Below are positions 9,995-54,747 of a DNA stretch of 64,000 bases, one piece after another. The notes below the pieces were generated by a model. It had not been told where the DNA came from. It was given only the letters and a program-made list of their open reading frames with translations, and did no database searches. The position numbers and the translations under genes are program-made. Each line of letters starts with the position of its first letter. The stretch's first letter is position 1. The stretch is taken from IMG/VR virus record IMGVR_UViG_3300033146_003395, positions 17,736 through 81,735 of that record; one strand, 5' to 3'. This DNA comes from a virus.

Positions 9995-10087
9995 TATAAG
10001 AGGACTTCGACGGTCAAATTATAAATGTAGAAGGACCGTCGAAAGAGCTTCTACATTTATAACATCTCTTATAGTATTTTATTTATA
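9995..10087 (-). ncRNA. endonuclease-associated structured element copy 1 with late promoter
   Basis: TATAAATA, P1 UAUAAGAG, 15-bp P2, loop CUCU-UUCGACGGUC complementary to downstream GACCGUCGAA, P1', RBS, ATG. Confidence 0.75.
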
Positions 10088-10115
10088 AATATAATAATTA
10101 AAACAAAGGACAAAC

Positions 10116-10427
10116 ATGTCAAAAGTAGATTTAGTAAAAGCTGCTCAAAGTAGAAGCTATATAGAATTTGAAGATTTAGCTCTTCAAGCACTTAAAGAAA
10201 AAGTTCAAGAGAACCCAATTATGACTCAATATTTAGATAAATTAAATATTGCTTCAGGTATAGTTAATGAAGAAGGTGTTTCTAAAGAAGACTTAGCAAA
10301 AGAGTACGGAGTTTCTGTAAAAGAAGTTTCTGATGCTTGGAGTAAAGCTGCTGGTATGGCTAAAGCCGCTGGAAAAGGTTCTAACTTTGGTTATATTGTT
10401 TCTATCGTTAGAGGTATGCTTAAATAA
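10116..10427 (+). CDS. paralog of putative prohead core protein
   Basis: VDLVKAAQ.RSYI.FED.AL...KVQENP shared with 5727..5966; TATAAATA at 10084-10091. Confidence 0.65.
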   Translation: MSKVDLVKAAQSRSYIEFEDLALQALKEKVQENPIMTQYLDKLNIASGIVNEEGVSKEDLAKEYGVSVKEVSDAWSKAAGMAKAAGKGSNFGYIVSIVRGMLK

Positions 10428-10768
10428 ATCTCTATACATACAAAATAAAAGAAATTACTAAAATCTATGATGGTGACACAGTTACTGCAATTATAGATTT
10501 AGGTATGAAAATGTATATTGAAAAATCTATTCGTTTATATGGAATAGACACACCAGAAATTCGCGGTGAAGAAATACCTGAAGGTTTAATTTCACGCGAC
10601 TGGCTTAGGGAAAAATTAAATAATGCTACTGAGATTTATGTTTCAACACATAAAGATAAGAGTGGTAAATATGGTAGATTATTAGGAACTTTATTTATTG
10701 ATAAAGAAATAATTTCTATTAATAATCAATTAGTTCAAGAAGGTTTAGCAGTTTTTAAAACTTACTAA
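10424..10768 (+). CDS. thermonuclease (SNase-like); true start probably upstream of 10505
   Basis: IYDGDT (upstream of called ATG), IRLYGIDTPE, GKYGRLLG, INNQLVQEGLA. Confidence 0.85.
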   Translation: MNLYTYKIKEITKIYDGDTVTAIIDLGMKMYIEKSIRLYGIDTPEIRGEEIPEGLISRDWLREKLNNATEIYVSTHKDKSGKYGRLLGTLFIDKEIISINNQLVQEGLAVFKTY

Positions 10769-10772
10769 CTTA

Positions 10773-11084
10773 CTAATCTGTTGAATTATTTTCTAAACTC
10801 TTCAATAAACTGTAATTTTCTTCAGCCCAAGTTTTATATTGTAACCAATTATTCTTTAAAATAGTTCCATCTATTCTTGGAATAGCGTAATAATCTTCTC
10901 CATTAAAATTAACCATAATAGTTGTATAAGGAACAAACTTCGGTTTGTCTTGTATTGTAGGCAATATACGATTTATATAAACTGTATTTGTAATAATTTC
11001 TGGTTCTATCGGCTCTGGGCAATCTGTACAACCCGTAAAACTAATTACCAATATTGCTGATAATATTAAAAGTACTGTCTTCAT
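10773..11084 (-). CDS. putative o-spanin lipoprotein
   Basis: Signal peptide with lipobox FTGC; Pro-rich; overlaps upstream TM coiled-coil gene. Confidence 0.7.
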   Translation of the reverse strand: MKTVLLILSAILVISFTGCTDCPEPIEPEIITNTVYINRILPTIQDKPKFVPYTTIMVNFNGEDYYAIPRIDGTILKNNWLQYKTWAEENYSLLKSLENNSTD

Positions 11085-11478
11085 CTTCTACCTTTGTTTT
11101 GATTTTTACTTTACACTCTTTATACACAATTGTTTCAGGATACTGTACAGGTTTTTTAAGCTCTTTAATATCATTTCTTAATGTTAGTATTAATTTATCT
11201 TTTAATACTAAACTCTTATTATAAAAACCTTTAAGCACTATTGAATCTCTCTTCATGTCTTTGATAACATAGTTATTACTATTATTAACATGTTTACATG
11301 CTCTAACATTTAAATTTAATGTATTATTATTATTTCTTAATAGTAATATAATTGAATCTTTTTTATTAATAGTAGACTCTAAACTCAAAATATTTGTAAA
11401 TTGGTATAATATATATCCAATTAAAAATATAATACCTAGAACCTTAGGGTCTTTTAATAAATTTAATATAACACTCAT
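11041..11478 (-). CDS. putative i-spanin
   Basis: N-terminal TM helix plus coiled-coil; position in lysis cassette. Confidence 0.65.
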   Translation of the reverse strand: MSVILNLLKDPKVLGIIFLIGYILYQFTNILSLESTINKKDSIILLLRNNNNTLNLNVRACKHVNNSNNYVIKDMKRDSIVLKGFYNKSLVLKDKLILTLRNDIKELKKPVQYPETIVYKECKVKIKTKVEDEDSTFNIISNIGN

Positions 11479-13058: not shown

Positions 13059-14933
13059 ATGTCATTAAAGAAATTACAACCCGAAACAATTTATGAAGAA
13101 ACCCAACGTGAGGCTATTGTAAACAGACCGCACAATCTTGCTGGTTCAGTGAAGAGAATGAAAAAAGAGCGTTTTACTATTTCAAAAGACGAGATTAAAT
13201 TACAAGAAACAAATACAATCCCAGCATTACTTAAACTGTTTATGGAAGCATTAGATAATCCTATCGATGTTGCTATCAAAGGTGGTTGTAATCTTATTCA
13301 AGTTAATGTAGATGCTAAATCTATTAGAATTCGTGATAATGGTTATGGTATTTCATCAGCGATAGGAGCAAATGGTGAATATGTTTTATATAAAGCAATG
13401 TGTAAATATAACACATCTGCAAATTATGCTAAAGATGTAAAAGGTCAAGGGCAAAAAGGTGTAAATGGTATTGGTATTAAACTTTGTACGACACTAAGTT
13501 CTTACTTTAAAGTTATTTCAGATGATGGAGTAAAACAAGTAACTGTTATTGCAAAAGATAATAACTTCGTTCACGAAGTTGATGAAGCAAAAACAACAGG
13601 TCAAACTGGAGTTGAAATTAAATTCAAACCAGATTTTAACTTATTTGATACTAATGAAATTGATGAAGAGCATTTAGATAGAATGTATGAATATACATTA
13701 ATCCAAGCATTGACATATCCTGATATTACTTTTAAATTCAATAATAGAGTTATTAAATATACACCAAAGAAATTTCTAGATTTATTTAAAACTGATTATA
13801 TTTCTGATAATCAAGATGACTATTTTATTAGTATCATGCCAAATGCAATGGATGATTTTAGACAAGTATCATTTATTAATGGGCTAGAGACATACAAGGG
13901 TGGTTCTCATATCGATTTTGTTATGGATAAAATCGTTGCTGGAATTAGAACTAAACTTATTAGAAAGCACAAAGGTATTAAACCAGGTGATATTAGGAAT
14001 AAGTTACAGTTAGTTCTAATCGGGAAGGGTATGAAAAATATTGACTGGGAAGGTCAAACTAAATCTGAAATGTCAACACCTAATTCTATATTAGCCGATT
14101 ATTTTAAGAATACAGATTTTGATAAGTTCATTGCTCGTATTTTAAAGAACCCAGATATTATCGACCCAATTACTGAGATTTTTAAACTTAAAGAAGAAGC
14201 TAAGAAAAACTTAGAGCTTAAAAAGTTAGATAGAAAAGGTAAAAAGAAACCTAAATCAGAAAAATTTATGCCTCCAATTGGAGCATGGAAAAATTGTTTT
14301 GTTTGTGAGGGAGACTCTGCAGCAAACTCTGTTTCTAAAATTTTAGGTAGACAAGGTAATGGATTTTATGCAATGTTTGGTGTTCCACCAAACGCTTATG
14401 ATATGGCAATGAAAGATATTATTAAATCTAAAAAAATGTTAGACTTAAAAGACATTCTAGGTTTAAAATTTTCTGAAACTGTTCAAAATGAAATTAATTT
14501 TGATAATATTGTTATCACAACCGATTTCGATTTACCTGGACATTTTATTACTGGTCAACTTATTGGACTATTATATAAATTTGGTAAGAATTTATTTGAA
14601 GAAGGTAGAGTACGTAGATTTATTACTCCTCTTTTAATAGCTACAGATAAAAAGGAGAAGATTGTAGAATGGTTTTATAGTTTCGATGATTATAAAGAAT
14701 TTGAAAAGAAAAATAAATCTAAAAATTATAATTATGACTATAAAAAAGGGTTAGGTAGTTTTGACCCAGAAGAACTAGAGGTAGTTATTGCAAAAGATGG
14801 CCTAGAAAATATGATGGAAATATTCACATTGGATAATATAGCACCTAAGACAATAGATAATTGGCTAGGCGGGGATTCAACACCAAGAAAAGAATATTTG
14901 GCAGATTATAAGTTTGATATTATGAGTATGTAG
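13059..14933 (+). CDS. gp39: DNA topoisomerase II large subunit (ATPase plus TOPRIM, gp39/gp60 fused)
   Basis: EALDN, DNGYGI, GVNGIGIKL, EGDSA, DFDLPGHFI, YKKGLGS. Confidence 0.95.
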   Translation: MSLKKLQPETIYEETQREAIVNRPHNLAGSVKRMKKERFTISKDEIKLQETNTIPALLKLFMEALDNPIDVAIKGGCNLIQVNVDAKSIRIRDNGYGISSAIGANGEYVLYKAMCKYNTSANYAKDVKGQGQKGVNGIGIKLCTTLSSYFKVISDDGVKQVTVIAKDNNFVHEVDEAKTTGQTGVEIKFKPDFNLFDTNEIDEEHLDRMYEYTLIQALTYPDITFKFNNRVIKYTPKKFLDLFKTDYISDNQDDYFISIMPNAMDDFRQVSFINGLETYKGGSHIDFVMDKIVAGIRTKLIRKHKGIKPGDIRNKLQLVLIGKGMKNIDWEGQTKSEMSTPNSILADYFKNTDFDKFIARILKNPDIIDPITEIFKLKEEAKKNLELKKLDRKGKKKPKSEKFMPPIGAWKNCFVCEGDSAANSVSKILGRQGNGFYAMFGVPPNAYDMAMKDIIKSKKMLDLKDILGLKFSETVQNEINFDNIVITTDFDLPGHFITGQLIGLLYKFGKNLFEEGRVRRFITPLLIATDKKEKIVEWFYSFDDYKEFEKKNKSKNYNYDYKKGLGSFDPEELEVVIAKDGLENMMEIFTLDNIAPKTIDNWLGGDSTPRKEYLADYKFDIMSM

Positions 14934-14976
14934 GTCTGGGTTGTTGGGAATTATAAATAATGAAAAGGATAAAATA

Positions 14977-15642
14977 ATGAAATCCAATATTTATAAAGTA
15001 ACATCTAAAACCTCTGGTAAATCTTATATAGGTAAAACTATCAAATCAATATTAAAAAGATTTGATGAACATGTATGGCATAGTTTAAATGAAAATTGCT
15101 TGAAGACACATTTTCATAATGCTATAAAAAAATATGGTAAAGGTGACTTTATTATTGAATTATTAGAATGTGCAGAGAATACTTTAGCAAGTGAGAGGGA
15201 AATATATTGGATAGATTACTTTGATACATTTAATGGCGAAGGCTATAATATGACTGTAGGTGGAGAAGGGTTTGGCATAGGAGAAAATCATCCAATGTAT
15301 AATTCAGCTAGATTCGGAGAATTAAATCCATTTTTTGGTAAAGAACATTCCGAAGAAGCTAAGAAAAAAATTTCAGATGAAGCTAAAGGTTTAGTAGTAG
15401 CAAGAAATAAGGTTACAGGGGAAGTTACTAAAATATTAAAAGAAGAATTTGATTTAAATAATAATTTGGTAGGTATTACTAATGGAATTAAATTACCAAA
15501 ATCTCACAGAGATAATATATCTAAAAGCACCATAGGTAAGAGTAAACCAAGAGTTATATGCGATTTATGTGGATTAAGTATAGATACTAGTAATTTAAAA
15601 AGACACAAAAACGGTAAAAATTGTAAAAAGGAAACACAATGA
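14977..15642 (+). CDS. GIY-YIG (Seg-like) homing endonuclease
   Basis: NIYKVT..GKSYIGKT, GYNMTVGGEG, NPFFGKEHSEE; own TATAAATA at 14952-14959. Confidence 0.85.
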   Translation: MKSNIYKVTSKTSGKSYIGKTIKSILKRFDEHVWHSLNENCLKTHFHNAIKKYGKGDFIIELLECAENTLASEREIYWIDYFDTFNGEGYNMTVGGEGFGIGENHPMYNSARFGELNPFFGKEHSEEAKKKISDEAKGLVVARNKVTGEVTKILKEEFDLNNNLVGITNGIKLPKSHRDNISKSTIGKSKPRVICDLCGLSIDTSNLKRHKNGKNCKKETQ

Positions 15643-16973
15643 AAAAAAGAGACGTAACACATTTTTTTGATAAAGAGTTTACTGACCAAGCAGCTTATAT
15701 AAACTTTAGTAAAATCTCATCAATTATGGGATATAAAGTTACAGCTAATAAAGTATTAAATACAATACTATCTGAGAATATTACTAAGTGGCAAAAAGTA
15801 GAAGTTATTTCGAGCCTAACAGCTCTTAAAACTTTATATCTAGGTGGTTCATCTAATATTGATGGAGTTATTGTAAATAATTCTACTACTTATGTTGGAG
15901 CTAATAATATTTCTGTTATTGATACTAAGGGTGACTTTGGTGGTAGACTGGATAATTTAGCGGCCGCATCAAGATATATTTTCGCTCGTAAAGGTGAAGA
16001 TTTCGATAAATATTTTAATAAAGAAGATTTGAATGTTCTAGAACGTTACAATTTTGAAGGTCAAGACATTGAGTATCAATTCTTAACTTTTAATATTCCA
16101 ATTATTCTATGTAATGGTGGGAAAGGTTTAGGTTCTGGCCACTCATTTAATATTTTTCCTCGTAACCCAGACGAGATTACTAAGTATCTTAAATATAATT
16201 TAGAAGGTAAAAACAAATCCAATAAACCATTTAAGAATAAACCATACTATAAAGGTTGGACTGGTGATATTTCTGCAGGTGAAGAAGAAAACCAATGGGT
16301 GATTGCTGGAAAATTTACTAGAAAAACTAAAGCATTAATTGAAATTACTGAAGTGCCTATTGGTGAAAGTTATAAATCTTATATTAAGAAACTAGATAAA
16401 CTTGTAGAAGCTGGTACTATTAAAGACTACGAAGATTTATGTGATACTAAGGCTGATACATTTCTTTTTAAAGTTAGAACTGATATTGCATTTTCTAAGA
16501 GAACTGATGAAAATATTATGAAGACACTGAAGCTTATCACTACAGATAAAGAAAACTTTACACTGAATGATGAGAATAATGCTATCCGTGTTTATAAAGA
16601 TGCTAATGAGGTTTTCTGGCACTATTATGAAATTAAAATGAAATATTTACAGAAACGTAAAGATTATTTAATTAAGAAAATCACTCAAGATATTCATATT
16701 GATGCAAGTAAATATTTATTCATTAAAATGATTGTTGATGAGAAACTAGTTATTAATAAACGTAAAAAAGATGCAATTGTTAAAGACCTTGATAAAGTAG
16801 AAAAAATATTAAAGCAAGAAGACAGTTATAATTATCTTCTGAATATGAATATTTTATCTTTAACTAAAGAACGTTTAGAGAAATTAATGCAAGATATTAA
16901 AGCCAAAAAAGCTAAACTTGATTTAGTAAAATCTCAAACATTAGAAGCGATGTGGCTTGAGGATCTATCATGA
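15639..16973 (+). CDS. gp52: DNA topoisomerase II medium subunit
   Basis: GDFGGR...AAASRYIF catalytic Tyr motif; NGGKGLGSG. Confidence 0.93.
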   Translation: MKKRDVTHFFDKEFTDQAAYINFSKISSIMGYKVTANKVLNTILSENITKWQKVEVISSLTALKTLYLGGSSNIDGVIVNNSTTYVGANNISVIDTKGDFGGRLDNLAAASRYIFARKGEDFDKYFNKEDLNVLERYNFEGQDIEYQFLTFNIPIILCNGGKGLGSGHSFNIFPRNPDEITKYLKYNLEGKNKSNKPFKNKPYYKGWTGDISAGEEENQWVIAGKFTRKTKALIEITEVPIGESYKSYIKKLDKLVEAGTIKDYEDLCDTKADTFLFKVRTDIAFSKRTDENIMKTLKLITTDKENFTLNDENNAIRVYKDANEVFWHYYEIKMKYLQKRKDYLIKKITQDIHIDASKYLFIKMIVDEKLVINKRKKDAIVKDLDKVEKILKQEDSYNYLLNMNILSLTKERLEKLMQDIKAKKAKLDLVKSQTLEAMWLEDLS

Positions 16974-41019: not shown

Positions 41020-41835
41020 TTATGATTTTCTTAATCTTCCTTTAGAAAATCCATCATATAGGTAAAATTCTGTAGGGTTGATAAGTTTAGATATAATTTT
41101 GTTATTTATCCAAATTCTATCCTTTACATTTGAAGAAAGTTTTTCTCTAGTTTCTTGTGAAATTTTATATATTACACCTTGCTGCCACCCATTATTTAGA
41201 TAATAATCTAATTCATATATTTTAACCTTCTTTTGTTTTTTATCTATTTTATTAAATATAAAAACTCTTCCTTTCTGCTCATTAGATATAGCCAATTTTC
41301 TTTCTTGTGTAAGTTCCTCTCTACCAATAGTATAATTTACTAAATCTATATCATTTATATTATCTCTAATATATTCACCTGTTATATTATTTCTCGCCCA
41401 AACTGTATTATAAACAGCCGATTTATCTTTAAGTTGTGAACTAGAATTCATAATATTACTTTTTATATTATGTAATTTACCATACATAGGATTATTTTTA
41501 CCTGAAACATCTCTTCCAAAAAAGCCATTCTTTTGCGCATAACTCATATTGATATAGTTATTATTTTTGACAACTTGATGTAATTTCTGAACTTTAAGTT
41601 CATGAATTAAAGCTATTTTTCTTCTATAAAATTTCTTTAATATACGAGTCTTAAATAAATGTGGGTTATTCTTTCTCTCGTGAATCCATATAGACTTATA
41701 TCTTTTTGATGTAACTGTTCCATTATATCCATTTAATATTTTTTCTATTGATGTAGATCCTATATACCATTCAGGAAGTTTATCACCTGTATAATGAGTT
41801 AAATATGTGCAGTATTGTTTATTTGATGTAGACAT
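41020..41835 (-). CDS. GIY-YIG-like homing endonuclease
   Basis: N-terminal half paralogous to 7662..8315 (YLT.Y.G..LP.WYIGS); YLNNGWQQG repeat. Confidence 0.75.
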   Translation of the reverse strand: MSTSNKQYCTYLTHYTGDKLPEWYIGSTSIEKILNGYNGTVTSKRYKSIWIHERKNNPHLFKTRILKKFYRRKIALIHELKVQKLHQVVKNNNYINMSYAQKNGFFGRDVSGKNNPMYGKLHNIKSNIMNSSSQLKDKSAVYNTVWARNNITGEYIRDNINDIDLVNYTIGREELTQERKLAISNEQKGRVFIFNKIDKKQKKVKIYELDYYLNNGWQQGVIYKISQETREKLSSNVKDRIWINNKIISKLINPTEFYLYDGFSKGRLRKS

Positions 41836-41856
41836 TGAAGTCTCCTATAATTAAAT

Positions 41857-41949
41857 TATAAGAGTGAATTACTAGGTTCAAATTAAATGTATATAGAGGA
41901 ACCTAGTAGAGCTCTATACACATTTAATATCTCTTATACTTTATTTATA
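41857..41949 (-). ncRNA. endonuclease-associated structured element copy 2 with late promoter
   Basis: Loop CUC-UACUAGGUUC complementary to GAACCUAGUA; 17-bp P2; P1 UAUAAGAG. Confidence 0.75.
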
Positions 41950-43387: not shown

Positions 43388-44653
43388 TTACTTTTCCTTT
43401 ATTCTTTGAATATCTAGACTCGAACAATGTAGTGACCCAGCAAATATATGCGAATGTCTTAATTGCACTGGAATAACTTCAAATCCATTTTCTTCTAAAA
43501 CTTCAATTGTTCCTAAAGCATCTTCCTGAACTATTACAGTTTTTTTATCAATGCTTAATATATTAACTGACATTCCTTCATCACTAGCTAGTCTTAAATT
43601 TTTATTAGTTAAATATTTAATTTCTCTTTCTGGTGTATTCTTTGGATATAAGTAAATATATCCATTATTAGGATGGAACTTACTTGGTAATTTCTTCCAT
43701 ACTTCTGGATAATTAGGATTAACCAAAAAAGTATTCTCATTTAAACTGACCAATACACCATCAATGTGAGAATCACATAATTTTACTATATGAAATTCTT
43801 TATTAGGAAAGAAACTTTTTAACCATAAAAATCCAAGATATTGATTATAATTACTTATGTTAACTATAATATCATCATTAAGCCTTAAAAAATTAGCCCC
43901 GTCAATTGCAGCTTCATAACTACTAGGAATATTATTAAAATCTCTATTCTTTTCCCAATCTTCAATATCAACACTACTCTCGGTTAATATCGTTAAGGGG
44001 GCTTTTATCCATTGGGTTTTAAAATTATTAGTAACCTCTTTAAATATATTATACATAGCTAAATTTTCAAAAGCTCTATTTCTGACAATTACCGGGGTTT
44101 CTATTAATTTATCATCAATGACAATTGTTATATCTCTTACATTATTTGCTGGTGATAATTCAGATTTAAAAGTGGTTGTTTTAAAAGGTATAACTTGTTT
44201 TAGAATATCAGGTCTATAAACAGTTATTCCCAATTCTTGTAATATAGTAGCTAAGTTATTTAAATCTTCAATGCGTTCTTTTAATATTATATCATTAATT
44301 ATATACTCATCACCTAAATCATTATATTCATATACAGATTGACCAAGATTTGACTTATAAAAATTTTTAAATGTAAAATCTATTACACGTTTAGATAATT
44401 CTAGTTCATTGCCAATTATAACTGCTTTTAATGTATCATAACTATTAGAACTATTAACTTCTATTTTTTTCTTTTTACAATTATCAAAATGCCATCTTTT
44501 AATTGCTCTAGGGTCTCCTTCTAAAAAACAATGTGGGCATTTAACTTTTTCTGTAAATCCTCGAGGTTTACCAATTTTACTATCTGATATTTTTTTTCTA
44601 GTTTCTTTGGTTAAGGTCTTTCCTTTATTGCCATTTGAAATCTTTTGTTTCAT
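43388..44653 (-). CDS. amidinotransferase with N-terminal endonuclease-derived segment
   Basis: NVRD, DGAN, HIDG, VNILSID, GSLHC of the Gly/inosamine-P amidinotransferase fold; first ~62 aa NUMOD3 plus CPHC..KRWHFDNCK. Confidence 0.85.
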   Translation of the reverse strand: MKQKISNGNKGKTLTKETRKKISDSKIGKPRGFTEKVKCPHCFLEGDPRAIKRWHFDNCKKKKIEVNSSNSYDTLKAVIIGNELELSKRVIDFTFKNFYKSNLGQSVYEYNDLGDEYIINDIILKERIEDLNNLATILQELGITVYRPDILKQVIPFKTTTFKSELSPANNVRDITIVIDDKLIETPVIVRNRAFENLAMYNIFKEVTNNFKTQWIKAPLTILTESSVDIEDWEKNRDFNNIPSSYEAAIDGANFLRLNDDIIVNISNYNQYLGFLWLKSFFPNKEFHIVKLCDSHIDGVLVSLNENTFLVNPNYPEVWKKLPSKFHPNNGYIYLYPKNTPEREIKYLTNKNLRLASDEGMSVNILSIDKKTVIVQEDALGTIEVLEENGFEVIPVQLRHSHIFAGSLHCSSLDIQRIKEK

Positions 44654-44672
44654 TATAATTCCTAATTTTGAA

Positions 44673-44763
44673 TTATAAGAGGACTTTCCACGGTCAGATT
44701 AAAAGTGTAGATGGACCGTGGAAGAGCATCTACACTTTTAATATCTCTTATAACTTATTTATA
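44673..44763 (-). ncRNA. endonuclease-associated structured element copy 3 with late promoter
   Basis: Loop CUC-UUCCACGGUC complementary to GACCGUGGAA; 16-bp P2. Confidence 0.75.
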
Positions 44764-44816
44764 TTATAACGGATTAATATTAAAATAATCTTAAATTGCC
44801 TGAAATTTAGTCCAAA

Positions 44817-44861: not shown

Positions 44862-44871
44862 AGGATTTAAT

Positions 44872-46058: not shown

Positions 46059-46293
46059 GTTTAAAAATTAAAAAAAAAGTGGACCTCTTTATAATAAGTT
46101 AAGAGCATCTAAAAAACAAATTCAGAATTATCAAATAGATATAGTATATCTGAAAAAAGATTTTGACCCTTTTTCTGGTCTGTTAGATAGGATAAAACAC
46201 GAGGAACAAATTGCTGAAATTGAAGAGAAAATAGATGAAGAAAAGAAGTATTATGACAAATTAATATTTGACCACCCAGAGTATTTTATATGA
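46055..46293 (+). pseudogene. PEYFV-tag family gene frameshifted in an A9 tract (ends HPEYFI)
   Basis: ATGA overlaps at both ends; frame restored by one extra A at 46070-46078. Confidence 0.65.
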
Positions 46294-46604
46294 TGTTAGC
46301 ACCTATAATAGTATTATGTGAAACTTATGAAGATTTATATGAATGTGAACAACAGACTGGTAAAATATATTTTACCAAAGATATTTATGCTGGTAATTTT
46401 ACATTTCCTGTTGTGTATTTTCGTTATATAGATAAAGATAGTCCAGCTTTAAGTGATTACGATATATATGAATTTAGTGTTATGCGGTATGCCAATAGAG
46501 AACAGTTCTTAGAAGAATATTATTATAACACAATGAAAAGATCCAACTTAACCCCAGTAAAACCTACAGAAATCAGAGAAGAATTTCCAGAGTATTTCGT
46601 ATAA
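46290..46604 (+). CDS. PEYFV-tag family protein (FPEYFV)
   Basis: ATGA overlap; last gene of array. Confidence 0.75.
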   Translation: MMLAPIIVLCETYEDLYECEQQTGKIYFTKDIYAGNFTFPVVYFRYIDKDSPALSDYDIYEFSVMRYANREQFLEEYYYNTMKRSNLTPVKPTEIREEFPEYFV

Positions 46605-46639
46605 TTATATAATAAAATCCAAATAATCCTTATCCAGAT

Positions 46640-46714
46640 ACGGCTAAATTATAAGTGTAGATGAGCCGTGGAAGAGCATCTACACTTATAAAATCTCTTA
46701 TTATATTATTTATA
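46640..46714 (-). ncRNA. endonuclease-associated structured element copy 4 (3' truncated, orphan)
   Basis: Promoter, P1 5' arm, P2 and loop CUC-UUCCACGGCU intact; only AGCCGU of the complement remains. Confidence 0.65.
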
Positions 46715-47606
46715 TAATATAATCTAAATCTTTATCCTTACACATTTGTACAATGGATTTTTCACATAGACGGCAGGCTTCGTACTTCATACTTAATACT
46801 TCTTCCCAAGTCCAATCAGGGTCTATTTGTGCTTCTAACGTTAAGTAACAAGGCCATTCTTTTCCGTTGACATCAATTTGTAAACTGCCAGCATTATAAG
46901 ATTTACACTTTGCAATTTTACTTAAACCTTTACTGAACTTCAGTGTAGCTATTTTTTCTATGTTCAAGTACTGTTCAATTTTGTCTTGATAAGGCTTTAG
47001 TTTATTTAAGTTATTTTTATTTTTATAATTACTTGAGTCTTTTAATAAGAATGTTTCAGTCCAATAAACATTTGTAAAATCTTCTAACATTTTAGCCATT
47101 TCGGGGCTATCAAAATCTTTATCGTTGTAATCAAAACGAATCATCTGTACATAATCTATGGGGTTAGCAATTCTGAAAAATTTAGCATTATCTAATATCT
47201 TCTCTAATGATGTACCACTTCTATACGTTTCATGTAATTCTTGAGTACTTCCCGTAATTGTGAAATATACCCTGTCATTTTTATCTAAAAGATTACCTAA
47301 GGTGCTCCACCATAAATGAGAATGAGTACTACCATTTGTACAAATTTCTATATTAATTTTACGTGTTTTAATAAATTCAACTAACTCTAAAAAGTAATTA
47401 TATAATGTAGGTTCACTAATACTACCAACAAGTCTTATCCATTCTAAATCAGGATATGATTTTATTTGCTCTTTTAACTCATCAAAATCTCTATGAAAAT
47501 TATCTGGGTAGTGTTCATCAAATGTGTTATAATTTCTATAACATAATTGGCAGGCAGCATTACAAAAAGTACTTAACTCAAATTCTATATCTTTTACTTT
47601 GTACAT
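46710..47606 (-). CDS. radical SAM protein (GSTQELHE subfamily)
   Basis: CNAACQLC; SEPT; C-terminal twitch-like Cys. Confidence 0.9.
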   Translation of the reverse strand: MYKVKDIEFELSTFCNAACQLCYRNYNTFDEHYPDNFHRDFDELKEQIKSYPDLEWIRLVGSISEPTLYNYFLELVEFIKTRKINIEICTNGSTHSHLWWSTLGNLLDKNDRVYFTITGSTQELHETYRSGTSLEKILDNAKFFRIANPIDYVQMIRFDYNDKDFDSPEMAKMLEDFTNVYWTETFLLKDSSNYKNKNNLNKLKPYQDKIEQYLNIEKIATLKFSKGLSKIAKCKSYNAGSLQIDVNGKEWPCYLTLEAQIDPDWTWEEVLSMKYEACRLCEKSIVQMCKDKDLDYII

Positions 47607-47614
47607 ATTAAACC

Positions 47615-48424
47615 TTAATCATTATATCTATAAGCATTACAGGTAGCACAAATCCCACTAAAGATTTTATTATCTTGTAATGTCTTATAAAAATTCATTT
47701 TTTTACGTAGCTTATCTACACCATCAGTATAATGTCCCAGCGAAGTATCACCATTAATATCTTGCCAAGAACAAAATACCACTTCACCATCATAATTTAT
47801 TCCAACATCATCGTCCATCCATTTACAGTGGCCAGCTCTTTCAACTTTTGTAATAATATCTGAATTGCCTAAATCCCATTCAAAATCAACAACTTCAGGT
47901 ATATCAAAATTACCTGTTAGCTCGTTATCTATATATTTATTTGATGCATTTGTCCTATTATTTATTTCTAAATTTATATTGTTACACTTTTTTAAATAAT
48001 TAATAGTTTTCATAACATTATTATATTTATCTTTACCAGTTCTGGTTTGAAAATGTGTTTTATCATACCCATAAAAACTGATAGTAACAAGTGGGTTATT
48101 AATACTATTTACTAAGTCAAATATTCTTTCATTATAAAACTCACCAGATGTAAAAAATTGAATTTCTAAATTATCAAAAGTATTACAGTAGTCAACTATT
48201 TCTACAAAACCATTATATGGATATAAAAAACTGTCGCCTATTAATGAGCCTAATTCTATACTTTCTGCGCCCCACTCTACAGCAAAATCAATATATTTTT
48301 TAACAGTTTCTACTGGAACAATTATTTTATTTTTTTGATATTCATCACTATTTTGACAAAATGTGCATCTTAAATTACATATATTTATCATTGGTACTTG
48401 AAATTCGCTCTTATCTACATCCAT
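47615..48424 (-). CDS. radical SAM protein with twitch/SPASM-like domain
   Basis: CNLRCTFC; C...GEVVFC...CATC. Confidence 0.9.
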   Translation of the reverse strand: MDVDKSEFQVPMINICNLRCTFCQNSDEYQKNKIIVPVETVKKYIDFAVEWGAESIELGSLIGDSFLYPYNGFVEIVDYCNTFDNLEIQFFTSGEFYNERIFDLVNSINNPLVTISFYGYDKTHFQTRTGKDKYNNVMKTINYLKKCNNINLEINNRTNASNKYIDNELTGNFDIPEVVDFEWDLGNSDIITKVERAGHCKWMDDDVGINYDGEVVFCSWQDINGDTSLGHYTDGVDKLRKKMNFYKTLQDNKIFSGICATCNAYRYND

Positions 48425-49272
48425 ACATTATCTCCATTTATTATATTTAATAGTTTCTGAGTATTAATATCACACTCTCTACAAAAATCATAATTACCAT
48501 TCTCTATATTTGTAAAATCTAAATTAAAAGTATCTTTTGTTTGCATTTTAAATAAATCACATGGACTCAAACTCCCATCACAATTTATTATTAAAAAATT
48601 ATCTAATTTTGCAGGGCATACTATATTTTTATCTTTATTTATTTTCAATATATTCAAATATTTCTTTCTTAAATTATCAACCATATTAAATTCATTATCT
48701 TTATTATAAACATACTCATTAAATTGCGCTGTATCATTAATAATAAACTCATTAAATTTATTATTATAAACAGATAAATCATCAAATTCATTATATTTAA
48801 ATCGTAAATAACTAACACAATTAATAGGGTTAATTTTTTCAAAAGCTAATATATTTCTAATAACAGTATCTAAGTTACTATTAACTCTATATTTTTCATG
48901 TAGCTCTTGGGTACTTCCACAAACTGTGAATGTAATACTATCATTTGAACTCATAATATTTGCTAATTTTTCCCACCATTTCTCATCATGTAAATCACCA
49001 TTGGTAAATATTTCTACAATAATATTAAGACTTTTAATAAATTCAATTAGTGGTAATATATCTTTAAAAGTTGTAGGTTCACTTATAGCACTTGATAAAG
49101 TAATTTTTTTAACGTTCTTAAATTTTAATATATCACTTTTAATCTCTGTTAATGAGCGAGAACTAATATTTTCAAATTCTATATTTTCTCGCAAGCATAA
49201 CGGGCATTTTAGATTACATGCTGTTGTTGTTTCTAATTCGATATGCTCGATATTTTCATACTTTGTTTGCAA
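48415..49272 (-). CDS. radical SAM protein (GSTQELHE subfamily)
   Basis: CNLKCPLC. Confidence 0.9.
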   Translation of the reverse strand: MQTKYENIEHIELETTTACNLKCPLCLRENIEFENISSRSLTEIKSDILKFKNVKKITLSSAISEPTTFKDILPLIEFIKSLNIIVEIFTNGDLHDEKWWEKLANIMSSNDSITFTVCGSTQELHEKYRVNSNLDTVIRNILAFEKINPINCVSYLRFKYNEFDDLSVYNNKFNEFIINDTAQFNEYVYNKDNEFNMVDNLRKKYLNILKINKDKNIVCPAKLDNFLIINCDGSLSPCDLFKMQTKDTFNLDFTNIENGNYDFCRECDINTQKLLNIINGDNVWM

Positions 49273-50185
49273 TATTTTCCTTTATTTGTGAGTATTTTAA
49301 GTTTAGACCAGCCAGTGTCGCTTCGAGCCCAATATGTTTAATTAGTTTTTTCGCCACAATATCTAAATTTCTTAATGGGTATTTAACACTCTGGTGAAAA
49401 TCTTCATAATCATCGTAATGATAGATAGCTGTATTTTTATTACAATTATACTTTTCATTTAATTCATGATCATCTCCCTCATGAAAAGAAATTGAAGATT
49501 TAAAATCGGTAATATCAATAAATTGTTCGGGATAAGCGTGATATATTATACTTGCTGCTATTTCTTCGCACATTATTTCTAACTCTAGCTCTGGTTTGTT
49601 TACTTTCTCTGAAACTTCTAATAGTTTAAAAGTTACTTCTTTATATAATTTCCAAAACATATGATCTGTTTTTGCATATATAAACCAAGTATTAACAAAT
49701 TTAGTTAAGTGCTTTACTTCAATATCAAAACAATCCAGTATATCTTTTTTAAAATATTTATTGTAATATTCATCCCATAAAAAGACATTCTCGAATTGGT
49801 CAGTTTCTTTACTATCTAATATTGTTATAACACATCTATCTGTTTTACCCAATATTAGCTCGTCAAAATATATAACATCTAAATCTGTAAATAATGTATA
49901 TTCTGTATCTACCTTATCTATTATATAATCTAAAACTATGGGTACATTTGTATAATTAACAACCTTATTTGGTTGTGGGTTGTAAATATCCTTTATTATA
50001 TATTGTATCGCATTAATCTTAAAGTAATCTTGACATTCAGCATTAATATCATTTTTATTTGGTTGGACCATAATAATATTTTCAATCTTATTAAAACTTG
50101 AAAAAGAATCAATATATATTCTAGCATCTCTTTCAAATCTTCCATTTTTCCCTTCTATACAATGAACCATAGTAGTATTTAGCAT
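49256..50185 (-). CDS. putative GT-A glycosyltransferase
   Basis: LFTDLDVIYF DxD motif; IYHY. Confidence 0.6.
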   Translation of the reverse strand: MLNTTMVHCIEGKNGRFERDARIYIDSFSSFNKIENIIMVQPNKNDINAECQDYFKINAIQYIIKDIYNPQPNKVVNYTNVPIVLDYIIDKVDTEYTLFTDLDVIYFDELILGKTDRCVITILDSKETDQFENVFLWDEYYNKYFKKDILDCFDIEVKHLTKFVNTWFIYAKTDHMFWKLYKEVTFKLLEVSEKVNKPELELEIMCEEIAASIIYHAYPEQFIDITDFKSSISFHEGDDHELNEKYNCNKNTAIYHYDDYEDFHQSVKYPLRNLDIVAKKLIKHIGLEATLAGLNLKYSQIKENIANKV

Positions 50186-51069
50186 ATAAACTCCAAACCA
50201 AATTTTTCTATTTTATTTATTGTTTGTTTCTCACATGCAAAACAATCAGGGTAATTAAAGTCTATTATTTTTGTATAATCAAAAATATTGCCAGTAAAAG
50301 CTTCACCTGGATTATATTCAAAATGTGTATAACAAGCACTGATATTTCCATCTTGTGATATATAAATTTTTTTATACTCTAAACTTTTACATAGAAGAGT
50401 ACCAGTTTTTCTTCTATTTTTAATTAGCCATTTAATTGTTTTATCTCTAATTTCTTCCGGTTTAATATTTGAATCTGGTGTTTTAACTTTTGAATTTATA
50501 ATACGGTCGCCTTCACTATTAACAGTATAATGGTTACTAAAGTTTAATTTATTTACATTGTCTTCGTCATTTTTATTATATTCAAATTTAATAAACTGAC
50601 AATAATCATTATTTTTGTTGCTTTTTTTATAACTCATTGCGTTTTGTAAGACTGTTTCTAAGTTACTATTAACTCTATATTTTTCATGTAACTCTTGGGT
50701 ACTTCCACAAATAGTGAAATGAACAGCATCATCATTATCTAGTACTGACCCAAGCTCTTCCCAAAAAGCTGCATCTCTAGTGCTTCCATTTGTGAATATT
50801 TCCACCATCATACCTCTGGCCTTTAAATATTGTATATATTTGATAAAGTCAGGATGAAGTGTAGGTTCAGATACTTGTCCGGCAACATAAGCCCTTTTAA
50901 GATTTGGAAATGTATCAAGTTGCTTTATAATATTTTCCAACGGTCTAACATTCTTATGTACCATGTGCTGTGCATGAATATAATTACGGCTGCATAAAGG
51001 GCAACTAAGATTACAAGTCCCCGTTAAATCTAATTCAAACTCTTCATAAAAATCTTTACTTACTTGCAT
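50179..51069 (-). CDS. radical SAM protein (GSTQELHE subfamily)
   Basis: CNLSCPLC. Confidence 0.9.
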   Translation of the reverse strand: MQVSKDFYEEFELDLTGTCNLSCPLCSRNYIHAQHMVHKNVRPLENIIKQLDTFPNLKRAYVAGQVSEPTLHPDFIKYIQYLKARGMMVEIFTNGSTRDAAFWEELGSVLDNDDAVHFTICGSTQELHEKYRVNSNLETVLQNAMSYKKSNKNNDYCQFIKFEYNKNDEDNVNKLNFSNHYTVNSEGDRIINSKVKTPDSNIKPEEIRDKTIKWLIKNRRKTGTLLCKSLEYKKIYISQDGNISACYTHFEYNPGEAFTGNIFDYTKIIDFNYPDCFACEKQTINKIEKFGLEFIC

Positions 51070-51101
51070 TACAAATCTCTATTACTAAAAATAGTACAGG
51101 A

Positions 51102-51992
51102 TTATCTATCACTTTCAAACCTTAACTGCTCACCAGAATATTCATCTTCTGGCTCTGCAACTTTATATATTTTATTAGATCTTAATGTTTTGGCATTTAA
51201 CGAACTACATTCGTAACAATGAGCATCTCCATATAAATTAAATAGAATGCACGGTGATGTTTTCCCAGTAAAATCAACCAGTTGAAACTTATAATTTATT
51301 GCTGGACACGATATATTTTCAAAATCAGTCTTTATTATCTCGGATTTGTAAATATTATGAAGTTCATTTACTAAATGTATACCTTCTGGAACATCTGTTA
51401 AATTAAAGTGCTCTACCATAGGAAGGGTATTAAAAGATTCAAGATCATATTTTGTGAACTTATGATAGTTTTTTTCGTAATCTTCTTTATTATACTCAAA
51501 TAATATCCAAGTTAATTTAGCGCTAGATGAATATTTTTGTACTATTTCTAGTCTTCTAATAACAGTATCTAAGTTACTATTAACTCTATATTTTTCATGT
51601 AACTCTTGGGTACTTCCACAAATAGTAAAATAAATAGACCCTATGGCACCATTAAAAACACTACCTAATTTTTTATAATATAAATCATCGTGCGTACCAC
51701 CATTAATGAATAAAGATATATCTATTTTTCTACGTTTTAAATATATTATTAATTTAAAAAGATCGGGGTGAAGCGTTGGCTCGCTTATTGCACCAGCAAT
51801 AGATATAAATTTTAAATTTGGGTATGAATCAATTTGTTCTATTATGTCTTCTATATCTCTAAATATTGTATCAGTTTTAGTATAGTCTGGATTAATTTGT
51901 CTTATGCATAATGGGCACTTTAGGTTACAAGTACTAGTCAACCCAATCTCCAGTCTATCAATATCTGCATTATTTAAATCATTATATACCAT
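51102..51992 (-). CDS. radical SAM protein (GSTQELHE subfamily)
   Basis: CNLKCPLC. Confidence 0.9.
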   Translation of the reverse strand: MVYNDLNNADIDRLEIGLTSTCNLKCPLCIRQINPDYTKTDTIFRDIEDIIEQIDSYPNLKFISIAGAISEPTLHPDLFKLIIYLKRRKIDISLFINGGTHDDLYYKKLGSVFNGAIGSIYFTICGSTQELHEKYRVNSNLDTVIRRLEIVQKYSSSAKLTWILFEYNKEDYEKNYHKFTKYDLESFNTLPMVEHFNLTDVPEGIHLVNELHNIYKSEIIKTDFENISCPAINYKFQLVDFTGKTSPCILFNLYGDAHCYECSSLNAKTLRSNKIYKVAEPEDEYSGEQLRFESDR

Positions 51993-52818
51993 GTCTATCC
52001 TTTATTTCTTTATATACTTTATAATTTTTAATTGTCCCAGTTTTATTTTCAAATATATCACAATTAGAGCAAGACTCATTATAAATATTTTTAGTTTGGT
52101 TTGTAAAAATCTCTAATCTTTTTTTACTAAAATATACATCCTCTAAAGAAGTCTTATAAATGTTACCTAATAGTAACTCTGTATCTACTGTTAATTCGCT
52201 TTCTCCGCACAGACAGTAAACCATATTTCCATTCATATTTAATCTTGGGATAAATTGTAAACTACAGACACCAGTGCGTGTCTTATTTTTTTCTCTAATA
52301 TTTTTTGTAAACTCTTCTTTATCAATTATGTCTACACCATTATAAAAGTCATAATTAATACCGCGATATGATATTTCAATTGGTAAGTTTATTTTCTTAG
52401 CGTATTCTAAATTATTTCTATATATATTCCAATCATTTTCCGTTTTTCGTGTTAATGTTATAAAATCCTCTAAACACCCATCACCATAATCGCTTATTCT
52501 TATATCCAACTTACCTTGATACTTTTCAGTTAGTTTTTTTAACTTGTCTTGCACAGCTTCATTACACTTACTAAAATTGGTATAAAAACTAACCGAAAAA
52601 TCAGGCAAGACATAATTTAATTTTTCAATAAATTCAGGATCGATAAAAACTTCACCATCTATAGGAGTTAAATCTAATTCATCAATACCTATTTTCTTAG
52701 CGTCATCAATAATTTTAAAAAATACATCATTAGAAAGAATCTTGTGCTTATTAACATATTGAGATCCGCAGAAGTAACAGTTATAATTACAAATATTTAT
52801 TATTTCTATTCCTAACAT
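51982..52818 (-). CDS. radical SAM protein with twitch/SPASM-like domain
   Basis: CNYNCYFC; LLGNIYKTSLEDV; CSNC. Confidence 0.9.
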   Translation of the reverse strand: MLGIEIINICNYNCYFCGSQYVNKHKILSNDVFFKIIDDAKKIGIDELDLTPIDGEVFIDPEFIEKLNYVLPDFSVSFYTNFSKCNEAVQDKLKKLTEKYQGKLDIRISDYGDGCLEDFITLTRKTENDWNIYRNNLEYAKKINLPIEISYRGINYDFYNGVDIIDKEEFTKNIREKNKTRTGVCSLQFIPRLNMNGNMVYCLCGESELTVDTELLLGNIYKTSLEDVYFSKKRLEIFTNQTKNIYNESCSNCDIFENKTGTIKNYKVYKEIKDRHGI

Positions 52819-53438
52819 AACATCTCTAATGTGATTTCTTTTATTACTGCATTATCATTTTCCATTATAAAGATTTCTTGTTCCATAATTGACTCTGAAA
52901 AATCAGAATCAACAACATTTACTATTCTTAATAATGGCAAGTCAACTTCCTCATCATACTCATCAAAATAAATAAATTTACTTGGTTTACTAATTCGTAA
53001 AGAATCAATATCAAAAAAATAAATGATATTATTTTTAACTATTAAATTTTCATTATGTAAGTCTTGGAAAGAAATATCACTTTCCCAATCAGATATAATT
53101 TTTTTATAATCTAATAAATTTAACTCAGGGATATCCCGAGGTATATTACCATCTATAAATTCAAAAGTAAACCATTTTTCATCTTCTTCTAATAAATTTA
53201 TTGTATTGCTAATATTATTAATATTTTTAATAAATTTAAAAATCCGCATAGTATCTTCATGTGAATAGCATATTTTCTGTGTATAAAAATTATACAAGTA
53301 TTCCTTAAAAATATACTTTTTATTTTCAAATAGTATACTTCTTGGTGTTGTATCACCTAAAAATGTGACCTCGGTGGTTCCAAACTTTGTTTGAAGTTCT
53401 TTGCGATATTTATGATCTATTTCACTATTTAACAACAC
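52812..53438 (-). CDS. kinase-like protein (protein kinase/APH fold)
   Basis: IFKEY, FEFIDG, DLHNENLIV, FFDID. Confidence 0.65.
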   Translation of the reverse strand: MLLNSEIDHKYRKELQTKFGTTEVTFLGDTTPRSILFENKKYIFKEYLYNFYTQKICYSHEDTMRIFKFIKNINNISNTINLLEEDEKWFTFEFIDGNIPRDIPELNLLDYKKIISDWESDISFQDLHNENLIVKNNIIYFFDIDSLRISKPSKFIYFDEYDEEVDLPLLRIVNVVDSDFSESIMEQEIFIMENDNAVIKEITLEMLC

Positions 53439-54444
53439 TTGTTTCCTTTCTGAACTCTATTATATTTTTAATGTGCTCGCCTTCTATTATTTTAATACCT
53501 GAATTATTATATTGTTTTTCAATACCATCACAGATAAGAAAAAATTTACATTTAGAGCATTCTCTTGGTTTACTATAAGTATTAACTCTATTGGTTTGTG
53601 CTTGCTCATAAGCATTCTCAATTGTATTTTTAATTGGAGCTTCAGCATCATAAGTTAACAAATTCCAATCACCTAAATCATAGATGTGTTGGAATGTTCC
53701 TACAACATACTTCTCATATCCTTTCATAAAACAATAAGGGATATAACGAACATTAACTTCTATATCGGTTTCTACTAAATAATCAATACAAACTTTTATA
53801 CCTTCACTTAATATGTCGTAACTAGATACTTTCATATCTTTAGCGTCACTCCAGTAATTTAGTGGCAACAAATTTAACTGTTTGGGGCTAAAACTTCTTA
53901 CTAAATTTGCGTATTGTAACATATCATTAACGTTATTTTCCGTTACTGTGCAATTAATTCTAACCTTAATCCCTAGTATATTACAATTCTCAATAGCTTG
54001 TATAATATGTTGAAAAGCTTTATTGTGCCCTACAATTTTGTCATGTGAATCTGCATCCCACCCGTGTAAGCTAAATAATACTTCATTTAAACCGTGCATT
54101 TGTGACATCTCGGCAAAAGCGAAATCTTTTAATTTACTTCCATTGCTTAAACAAGAAACACTCATAAATTTATCTCTACAATACTCAAGTATATCAAACC
54201 AATCGGGGTGAATTGTACTCTCACCACCACTTAAGTCAACTTCCTTCATACCAGATTTAAAAAGTATATTTGCCCTTGCTTTAATTTCTTCTAGGGATAA
54301 ACTGGGGTCATTTAAATTATTTTGATAATAGCAAAATCCACATTTGTAGTTACATTTTAATCCGGTATCTAGTTTACCTCTGGAATTAATTGGTAGCTGC
54401 ACGTGGGTTTGTATCTGTGGTTTACTTATTGTATTATAATTCAT
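53425..54444 (-). CDS. radical SAM protein with C-terminal CxxCxxxxxC
   Basis: CNYKCGFC; SGGEST; IPYCFM; CSKCKFFLICDG. Confidence 0.9.
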   Translation of the reverse strand: MNYNTISKPQIQTHVQLPINSRGKLDTGLKCNYKCGFCYYQNNLNDPSLSLEEIKARANILFKSGMKEVDLSGGESTIHPDWFDILEYCRDKFMSVSCLSNGSKLKDFAFAEMSQMHGLNEVLFSLHGWDADSHDKIVGHNKAFQHIIQAIENCNILGIKVRINCTVTENNVNDMLQYANLVRSFSPKQLNLLPLNYWSDAKDMKVSSYDILSEGIKVCIDYLVETDIEVNVRYIPYCFMKGYEKYVVGTFQHIYDLGDWNLLTYDAEAPIKNTIENAYEQAQTNRVNTYSKPRECSKCKFFLICDGIEKQYNNSGIKIIEGEHIKNIIEFRKETSVVK

Positions 54445-54454
54445 TTTAATATCC

Positions 54455-54584
54455 TATATTGTTACAATTTTCTTGTAGATTTTCTGATATACTTCTTTTG
54501 GCCCATTTATACGTGAATGGGTTTCACATTGTTTTTCCAAAATATTTAAGACTTGTAATGAGTTTTAATATACAAATATATCAT
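54455..54584 (-). pseudogene. decayed GIY-YIG endonuclease 5' fragment
   Basis: RBS-ATG MIYLYIKTH, frameshift, then LKYFGKT-stop-NPFTYK. Confidence 0.6.
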
Positions 54585-54654
54585 TTGTATCCTTATAAGT
54601 AAATTATAAGAGTACAAATATATCATTTGTATCCTTATAAGTAAATTATAAGAG
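54571..54654. repeat. exact 42-bp tandem duplication
   Basis: tacaaatatatcatttgtatccttataagtaaattataagag x2. Confidence 0.95.
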
Positions 54655-54747
54655 TGTAAGAATTCGAAGGCTTACATTAAATGTATATAGATGAAGCCTT
54701 CGAGAGCAACTATATACACATTTAATATCTCTTATAATTTATTTATA
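54643..54747 (-). ncRNA. endonuclease-associated structured element copy 5 with late promoter
   Basis: Loop CUC-UCGAAGGCUU complementary to AAGCCUUCGA; 12-bp P1. Confidence 0.75.

Follow-up and report, generated by a model that had tools for sequence, protein, structure and literature searches.

The DNA considered here is a stretch of 64,000 nucleotides (called the window throughout, at its full length) comprising bases 17736-81735 of the 81.7-kb IMG/VR viral record IMGVR_UViG_3300033146_003395 (29% G+C; CheckV completeness 44%). The record carries T4-type genes, among them those for the major head protein, the prohead protease, the portal, both topoisomerase II subunits, a ligase and a helicase. 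No isolate phage has a head protein more than 45.5% identical to that of the record, the nearest being T4-like phages of Vibrio and Campylobacter, a distance which makes the record a deep, uncultured T4-like lineage. The subject of this work is a structured leader element that is repeated along the record between a candidate late promoter box, TATAAATA, and the start codons of homing-endonuclease-like genes or their remnants.

Four intact copies of the leader and one truncated copy lie in the window, all on the minus strand (Table 1); a sixth, intact copy lies outside it, at bases 212-303 of the record (G000:C1:212-303), also on the minus strand and ahead of a GIY-YIG-like open reading frame (ORF). 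The leader is read in the order TATAAATA, a spacer of 3-6 nt, UAUAAGAG (the 5' arm of helix P1), AU, the P2 hairpin, C', CUCUUAUAAU (the 3' arm of P1, here P1'), the ribosome-binding site (RBS) and ATG. P2 is AU-rich, with a stem of 16-17 bp, or 17-20 bp when wobble and closing pairs are counted; its 5' and 3' arms are termed P2a and P2b. Its loop consists of CUC(U) followed by a GC-rich 10-mer (C), the exact complement of which (C') follows P2 after 0-3 nt, and the 17-21 nt or so between P1' and the ATG contain the RBS. This architecture, at five minus-strand sites with five listed 10-mers, had been described in an initial sequence-only reading of the window, and reading all of the sites confirmed both. 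The motif ATAAGAGATNTTA occurs 9 times in the window with up to one mismatch, against 2.7 expected, and none of 100 shuffles reached 9; 6 of the matches are exact and 5 of these are elements, the sixth (25865, plus strand) having been rejected as a coding-sequence coincidence without a hairpin. The truncated copy 4 is itself matched by the covariance model described below, with E 8.3e-7.

Table 1. Positions of the leader copies and of the genes or remnants behind them, in window coordinates
Feature	Position	Strand	Details
Copy 1 leader	9973..10087	-	TATAAATA 10080-10087; P1' CUCUUAUAAU 9993-10002; ATG 9973-9975; loop 10-mer UUCGACGGUC
Copy 1 downstream ORF, 268 amino acids	9169..9975	-	DUF7487/phrog_5104; C-terminal HLDH...NLEMIP, HNH-like by eye only
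Copy 2 late promoter box, T4-type (putative), TATAAATA	41942..41949	-
Copy 2 P1 5' arm UAUAAGAG	41931..41938	-	RBS-region look-alike; contains stop codon of upstream ORF (41934-41936)
Copy 2 P2 hairpin	41882..41928	-	5' arm 41912-41928; loop CUC + 10-mer UACUAGGUUC 41899-41911; 3' arm 41882-41898
Copy 2 C' GAACCUAGUA	41870..41879	-	exact complement of loop 10-mer
Copy 2 P1' CUCUUAUAAU	41855..41864	-	alternative partners: P1 5' arm or RBS region (anti-RBS arm)
Copy 2 RBS region UUAAUUAUAGGAGACUUCA and ATG	41833..41854	-	10-bp hairpin with P1' in predicted centroid fold
Copy 2 downstream ORF, 271 amino acids	41020..41835	-	NUMOD3 and phrog_10820 (labelled 'HNH endonuclease'); N-terminus GIY-YIG-like by eye; homing-endonuclease-like
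Copy 3 leader	44651..44763	-	TATAAATA 44756-44763; P1' 44672-44681; ATG 44651-44653; loop 10-mer UUCCACGGUC
Copy 3 downstream ORF, 421 amino acids	43388..44653	-	residues 2-102 match homing-endonuclease DNA-binding parts; residues 62-417 amidinotransferase
Copy 4, truncated	46637..46714	-	promoter, P1 5' arm, P2 and loop intact; C' ends after AGCCGU; lacks P1', RBS and gene
Copy 5 leader	54624..54747	-	TATAAATA 54740-54747; P1' 54645-54654; ATG 54624-54626; loop 10-mer UCGAAGGCUU
Copy 5 nuclease-gene remnant, 26 codons	54546..54623	-	42-bp duplicate of P1'-RBS-start (second P1' 54603-54612), then MIYLYIKTHYKS and stop; ahead of radical SAM gene 53425-54444

The leader was then followed into other sequence collections. 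A strict pattern returned 12 stretches from IMG/VR and a loose pattern 114, in which 13 matches at 12 loci were true by eye and the rest were coding coincidences; a scan of metagenomes returned 112 stretches. Of 148 pattern matches put through the filter script, 57 (53 unique) were retained. Curation required at least 10 bp in P2 and a match of 7 nt or more between loop and flank, which dropped 91 of 148 and 55 of 120 pattern matches in two rounds, and a further 4 of 65 rows were removed as antisense or no-ATG artefacts, leaving 61 curated copies. A covariance model built from 19 copies and run over 65 loci identified 79 copies (76 distinct sequences) on contigs from viruses and metagenomes; this record contributed 6, and four further viral records 4, 3, 1 and 2. 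The four other contigs that were fetched share 30-60% protein identity and little synteny with the record, and are too diverged for the boundaries of insertions or deletions to be drawn. Among prokaryotes (one genome for each of 185,579 species) 31 stretches matched the pattern and none passed the filter, all of their matches being among the 91 dropped, and no element was found in 50,697 isolate phage records, where megablast gave nothing and blastn gave only partial matches of at most 40% cover with E of 0.4 or above. The sequence-only reading had staked novelty on Rfam, and Rfam 15 gave 0 matches at gathering thresholds over the whole window; when E values up to 10 were admitted for the 3.2 kb at 41700-44900, which hold two copies, the best matches scored 18-23 bits (E 2.4-6.5), where the family thresholds are 48-94 bits. 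Literature searches returned T4 reviews and papers on PeSL (promoter-early stem-loop) cassettes and no account of the leader, although a catalogue of 8,495 candidate viral RNAs from IMG/VR, as partly presented in PMC10690425, may include it.

The RNAalifold consensus fold of the leader is P1 plus P2, with compensatory changes in 14 of 22 pairs. In the alignment of the 76 distinct model matches, pairing holds in 98.4% of cells and each of the 15 P2 pairs has two-sided changes. The alignment was fitted to the covariance model, which favours the structure; its covariation score of 0.725 was reached by none of 500 shuffles, which gave 0.156, and slid partners gave no more than 0.126. The claim of a covarying RNA-like element, and of covariation in P2 in particular, thus holds. 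Furthermore, G-U or U-G combinations occur 61 times in the P2 pairs and A-C or C-A combinations only twice; therefore the fold is selected in the sense strand as RNA, and neither in duplex DNA nor in the antisense strand. In three metagenome loci (L215, L226 and L246) P2 is extended by a second helical segment past an internal loop, and the apical loop still consists of CUCA or CUCU and a 10-mer matching the 3' flank.

The second pairing is that between the loop 10-mer and the flank. Over the 61 curated copies the uninterrupted Watson-Crick match of C with C' averages 9.8 nt, against 3.6 nt for shuffled loops and 3.8 nt in 3,660 non-cognate combinations; an exact match of 9-12 nt, specific to the copy, is present in almost every copy, and 56 of the 61 C sequences are distinct. 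That the 10-mers differ and yet remain complementary, as first noticed in the four intact copies of the window, is a property of almost the whole set. Since these copies had been pre-filtered on the loop-flank match, the independent check is provided by 26 intact model matches chosen without regard to that pairing: 24 score at least 7 nt by script, a 25th (L121, misparsed) has 12 nt, and the remaining one has a bulged match of 5. Clean compensatory changes can also be seen between near-identical leaders, in copy 3 against the sixth copy and in L049 against L067.

It is clear from the junctions that P2 and the C:C' helix exclude each other. The two have no nucleotides in common, and the loop that C:C' closes is precisely P2b, with 0 nt between C and P2b in 50 of the 61 copies and 0 nt between P2b and C' in 52. 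The last base of C pairs with the first base of C', but these lie at opposite ends of P2; therefore the two helices cannot coexist in one molecule. By the steric rule for the loop that crosses a pseudoknot stem, loop 3 of an H-type pseudoknot has to span the first stem, which a linker that is mostly of zero length cannot do across 17-20 bp. The steric argument had previously been made from linkers of 2-3 nt, and if anything understated the clash. As isolated hairpins the two are comparably strong: P2 has a predicted energy of -17.5 +/- 3.4 kcal/mol and C:C' one of -13.3 +/- 3.3 kcal/mol; in folds of the whole leader the median difference is 4 kcal/mol, with C:C' the more stable in 10 of 62.

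The strictness of this clash in cis could instead mean that loop and 3' flank pair between molecules, leaders of one and the same gene forming dimers or chains by loop-bulge contacts, or that an excised P2 top acts as an antisense RNA on the C' of its own mRNA, in either case giving a dose-dependent brake. The loop is asymmetric, with 3-5 nt before C in 48 of the 61 copies and 0 nt after it in 50, an asymmetry that fits a helix stacked on P2, as in pseudoknot geometry; the linkers around C' (0, 0 and 2-7 nt) would suit a three-way junction, and copy-specific codes, whose non-cognate matches are as short as given above, would prevent cross-pairing. A known parallel to such an arrangement is the phi29 pRNA, whose complementary segments cannot pair in cis and covary among relatives; it is part of a packaging motor and makes 4-nt loop-loop contacts, whereas in the leader 9-12 nt of a loop and a bulge within an mRNA leader would be involved. 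If true, this would amount to an intermolecular self-recognition code, a private concentration-dependent brake for each nuclease gene and a new form of control by mRNA self-association in phages. The lengths of P2 and C do not compensate one another, however (their sum is 22-34 bp, r +0.28), so that no fixed dimer geometry emerges, and on energetic grounds the alternative hairpin in cis is plausible in its own right; we consider pairing between molecules distinctly improbable.

Another suggestion, that the 10-mers match nuclease target sites, was not borne out: within the 81.7 kb of the record (44% complete) each occurs only in its own element, with its complement, except for one extra plus-strand match to the 10-mer of the sixth copy.

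The RBS had been placed outside the structure by the sequence-only reading, and this proved wrong. P1' has a complementarity of at least 7 nt to the RBS region in 57 of the 61 copies, compared with 29 of 115 control ORF leaders of this genome, and the RBS-proximal motif UAUA(A/G)GA is found in 46 of the 61 elements and in 11 of the 115 ORF leaders. Pairing of P1' with the RBS region recurs in RNAfold predictions, as in the 10-bp hairpin CUCUUAUAAU/AUUAUAGGAG of copy 2. P1' thus has two rival partners that resemble each other, UAUAAGAG in the P1 5' arm and UAUAGGAG or UAUAAGGA in the RBS region. A concerted change at these three sites is seen in the variant L229:3233-3369, the P1 5' arm having changed to AAUAAGAG, P1' to CUCUUAUU and the RBS region to AAUAAGAGG; in L086:2596-2718 a U-A pair of P1 has become C-G, and the new G is also paired in the predicted RBS hairpin. 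On these folds the RBS belongs to the structure, with the P1' helix predicted to sequester it.

The box TATAAATA stands ahead of all six copies in the record and all 61 curated copies, the search pattern having required it; its place directly before the element, where it was taken for a late promoter, had been part of the original description and stands for every copy in the record. It is followed by AAGAG after 6-9 nt in all 61 copies. In T4 the late promoter box spans -13 to -6, according to the available text of PMC2988020. The box is no more frequent in the record than expected by chance, and 15 of its 31 occurrences lie 5-130 nt upstream of the start of an ORF on the same strand, against a mean of 17% and a maximum of 31% for 55 8-mers of the same composition. 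This placement fits use of the box as a T4-type late promoter. With a T4-type start, the 6-9-nt spacing would put the first nucleotide 1-4 nt before AAGAG, so that the P1 5' arm would stand at the head of the message. A host-type promoter at the TATAAT of P1' was also considered and rejected, none of the 60 strongest sigma-70-type sites listed, of 136 scored, making use of it; the 136 compare with 121 +/- 12 in shuffles, in a scan that does not cover hosts without a -35 element. In copy 1 the -35-like TTGACC is only 13 nt from the TATAAT, and this spacing differs among the copies. A pair of overlapping TATAAATA boxes, one on each strand, is found at 10080-10091 (TATTTATAAATA); the two appear to form a divergent late-promoter pair, serving the nuclease gene of copy 1 and a plus-strand gene that starts at 10116.

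A start at this position would leave the 5' end of the message paired, which raises the possibility that the leader is an RNA processing or stability element: a near-continuous P1+P2 duplex of about 25-28 bp would block 5'-end-dependent decay, or be an RNase III-type site, and the pairing of the RBS would be incidental. In 45 of the 61 copies no nucleotide separates P1 from P2 on the 5' strand, and the combined helix is long and well conserved. There is also a precedent in the very stable hairpin of seg43(25) in Aeromonas phage 25, which lies just upstream of the RBS of a free-standing nuclease gene, as the hairpin of the leader does, and is described as not covering that RBS; in the sections of PMC2988022 available, from which it is compared by description only, no loop-flank complement or multi-copy family is described for it. 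However, the exact, copy-specific complement between C and C' would be left unexplained, as would the conserved complementarity of P1' to the RBS and its triple covariation, and a role in stability alone seems to us unlikely.

The genes behind the leader bear on both its association with nucleases and its portability. Of the five copies in the window, two (1 and 2) precede intact genes, two (3 and 5) precede remnants and one (4) has no gene downstream. Of the genes named in the sequence-only reading, the HNH-like nuclease of copy 1 and the GIY-YIG-like nuclease of copy 2 (both by eye), the amidinotransferase fusion of copy 3 and the absence of a gene at copy 4 all stood, and the GIY-YIG pseudogene proposed for copy 5 turned out to be a remnant of 26 codons. 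The fusion of copy 3 draws about 60 N-terminal amino acids from the DNA-binding region of a NUMOD3-type nuclease, joined to an L-arginine:glycine amidinotransferase of the PDB 1jdw type (E 5e-28); here the nuclease leader may have been taken over by a host-phage gene.

Overall, 54 of the 59 ORFs behind a leader belong to N-terminal groups for which the scanned representative matches a homing endonuclease or endonuclease family, the classes being labelled from one or a few scanned representatives of each N-terminal BLAST group. The association with nucleases, on which the original claim depended, therefore extends beyond this record, and several families are involved, as had been proposed. The groups comprise an HNH type (HHILP; 18 of 59), one dominated by LYIKTHNKTGLKYFGKT-type proteins (phrog_314; 15), a YxYxxT GIY-like group (10), canonical GIY-YIG proteins (6), DUF7487/phrog_5104 (3, two of which end in an HNH-like motif), DUF723/phrog_681 (2), the amidinotransferase fusion (1) and one ORF of unknown type (1); single proteins include a Vsr-like DUF559 protein with zinc fingers, a T5orf172 protein and a phrog_15427 protein.

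Such constant company with nuclease genes, together with a pseudoknot-like topology, might be expected of a self-cleaving ribozyme or of an RNA bound by a protein, perhaps by the nuclease itself. Yet no Rfam ribozyme family was matched at E up to 10 in the 3.2 kb with two copies, conservation among the unpaired nucleotides is limited to a few (AU and CUC(U)), and the nuclease families that follow common leader cores differ, which implies no single partner; this explanation is very improbable indeed.

Similar leader cores are found before different nucleases: 7 of 10 multi-member groups of such cores mix nuclease classes. This, the presence of several copies on one contig and the extent of inter-copy similarity, which runs from the promoter to the start codon, could point to a recombination cassette acting at the level of DNA, in which the blocks TATAAATA..UAUAAGAGAU and CUCUUAUAAU..RBS serve as patches of homology that shuffle nucleases and the RNA fold is secondary. 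Breakpoints do occur inside the element (the truncation of copy 4 and the duplicated P1'-RBS of copy 5), and the PeSL elements offer a precedent in T4-type phages (PMC2839356 and PMC4122927, as far as their available text goes). However, recombination needs sequence identity and not compensation, whereas the variable core keeps its pairings, and the predominance of G-U over A-C indicates that a single RNA strand is under selection. The genes also lack a flanking 3' partner repeat, no 8-mer being common to more than 6 of 54 downstream flanks; the idea of a DNA mobility end, which had been among those first offered, thus finds neither a conserved 3' partner motif nor pairing statistics in its favour. 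A cassette of this kind as the primary role is judged improbable, and a role in recombination is compatible, as a side effect, with the regulatory leader that is preferred here.

Four nuclease-like genes in the window are without the structure and have plain TATAAATA-RBS leaders, one of which contains UAUAAGGA; the structured part therefore looks like an insert between promoter and RBS. One homing-endonuclease-like gene with a plain TATAAATA leader (14941-15642, plus strand) lies between the topoisomerase II subunit genes at 13059-14933 and 15639-16973, and other nuclease-like genes without the structured leader are at 7662-8315, 19057-19920 and 36996-37931.

From what was observed (which segments pair, how these pairings are conserved and covary, which strand is selected and which genes follow) we propose, with confidence evenly balanced for and against, that the element is a portable late-promoter leader gating the translation, and probably the stability, of homing-endonuclease mRNAs. 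It would be the cis-acting 5' leader of late, free-standing homing-endonuclease messages, mobile as a module from promoter to start codon, and a late start 1-4 nt before AAGAG would make the P1 5' arm the 5' end of the message. Two choices would follow. The first is between P2 (17-20 bp, AU-rich) and C:C' (9-12 bp, GC-rich), as sterically exclusive helices; the second concerns P1' (CUCUUAUAAU), whose partner would be either UAUAAGAG of the P1 5' arm or its look-alike in the RBS region, UUAUAGGAG or UUAUAAGGA. Formation of P2 would bring the arms of P1 together and let P1 compete for P1'; about 27 bp of helix would then enclose the 5' end, and the RBS would be freer. With C:C' formed, P2a would be single-stranded, P1 disfavoured, and P1' would cover the RBS. 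In thermodynamic modelling, forcing P2 gave P1 a probability of 0.21-0.43 and forcing C:C' one of 0.02-0.12, while P1' paired downstream with probabilities of 0.46-0.67 and 0.66-0.77 respectively. We infer in this way the transcription start, the coupling of the two choices and an effect on translation or decay.

Several observations weigh against this proposal. The modelled change at the Shine-Dalgarno sequence is modest, its unpaired probability being 0.31-0.38 with P2 and 0.27-0.28 with C:C', so that it is mostly paired in both states, and the energies of P2 and C:C' are not significantly co-tuned (r = 0.21, p = 0.11). No trigger, and no class of transcript that would choose the state, was found, late and read-through transcripts both carrying every arm. 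A co-oriented ORF is close upstream in only 22 of 50 copies and at no fixed distance. P1 is near-invariant: one C-G change is present among the modelled pairs, and the second compensated change, in the variant L229:3233-3369, falls just outside them, with one variant behind each. The conserved CUC(U) of the loop is left unexplained, eight other nuclease-like genes of the record do without a structured leader, and the start of transcription is taken over from T4 by analogy. Two additions to the proposal were tried and rejected. For control of read-through by ribosomes terminating on P1, co-oriented frame ends lie within 30 nt of the box in only the same 22 of 50 copies, and their offsets are scattered; a decoy pairing of AAGAG with the CUCU of the loop was predicted at a probability of only 0.00-0.14.

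Homing endonucleases must be expressed late and sparingly, and the solution in T-even phages is a simple hairpin that is bypassed by a promoter. The closest known system to the leader is this set of RBS-masking hairpins with an embedded promoter, in the leaders of T-even homing endonuclease genes. Hairpins of this type, sequestering the RBS and associated with a late or middle promoter, are reported for I-TevI, I-TevII, I-TevIII, segB and mobE of Aeh1 (PMC2988022, in the parts available). Like them, as described there, the leader is a cis-acting RNA structure ahead of homing endonuclease genes in T4-type phages, with the TATAAATA late promoter within the unit, a complementary arm over the RBS and a presumed restraint of nuclease translation. 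Unlike them, it has its promoter upstream of all the arms: TATAAATA is 5' of every one and P1' lies about 75-95 nt downstream of the predicted start, so that the late transcript is not freed by the lack of an arm, and no second TATAAATA was seen inside the leaders read in the window. The leader also differs in having an extra arm, the P1 5' arm, which mimics the RBS and competes for the anti-RBS arm, in holding a second pair of exclusive helices with copy-specific sequence, and in being one family that serves several nuclease families with many copies per genome.

The PeSL elements are likewise repeated intergenic modules that run from a promoter to the Shine-Dalgarno sequence and start, contain a stem-loop, lie beside variable genes and plausibly aid shuffling (PMC2839356, from the text available). 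As characterised in that text, they have sigma-70-like early promoters and GC-rich terminator stem-loops and flank ORFans, whereas the leader has a late promoter and an AU-rich hairpin without a U-tract, and precedes nucleases. Unlike PeSL, the leader has a second, competing helix. No sigma-70 early promoter of the PeSL type was found at the elements among the 60 strongest of the 136 scored sites, and no terminator-like site coincides with an element, the two in 40000-56000 both lying elsewhere.

The leader is thus a real, undescribed-looking version of a known phage restraint on selfish nuclease genes. Compared with the T-even hairpins it would be a more elaborate restraint that moves from gene to gene, with two interlocked pairs of competing helices in about 100 nt, common to several unrelated nuclease families and distributed over an uncultured T4-like lineage. 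Its dozens of natural, pairing-preserving variants form a ready series of compensatory mutations in which the switching of sterically exclusive helices can be studied. Furthermore, it shows how a regulatory repeat can survive in many copies in a highly recombinogenic genome, its structure kept and its sequence scrambled; the copy-specific variable core probably keeps the repeats too dissimilar for ectopic recombination.

Some minor observations concern the surroundings of copies 4 and 5. The stretch 46580-46779, which contains copy 4 and the end of a radical SAM gene (46710-47606), is represented by 87 other letters in one contig of the sediment DNA run X2, among three DNA runs compared as contigs; this contig matches both sides of the stretch and possibly belongs to a relative without the copy 4 remnant. 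In copy 5 an exact tandem duplication of 42 bp, covering P1', the RBS, the ATG and the first codons, occupies 54571-54654 (minus strand). Radical SAM genes flank both of these copies, at 46710-47606 (minus strand; PF04055, E 1.7e-13) and at 53425-54444 (minus strand; E 3.1e-19), and both lie within a long minus-strand block of ORFs of about 270-340 amino acids.

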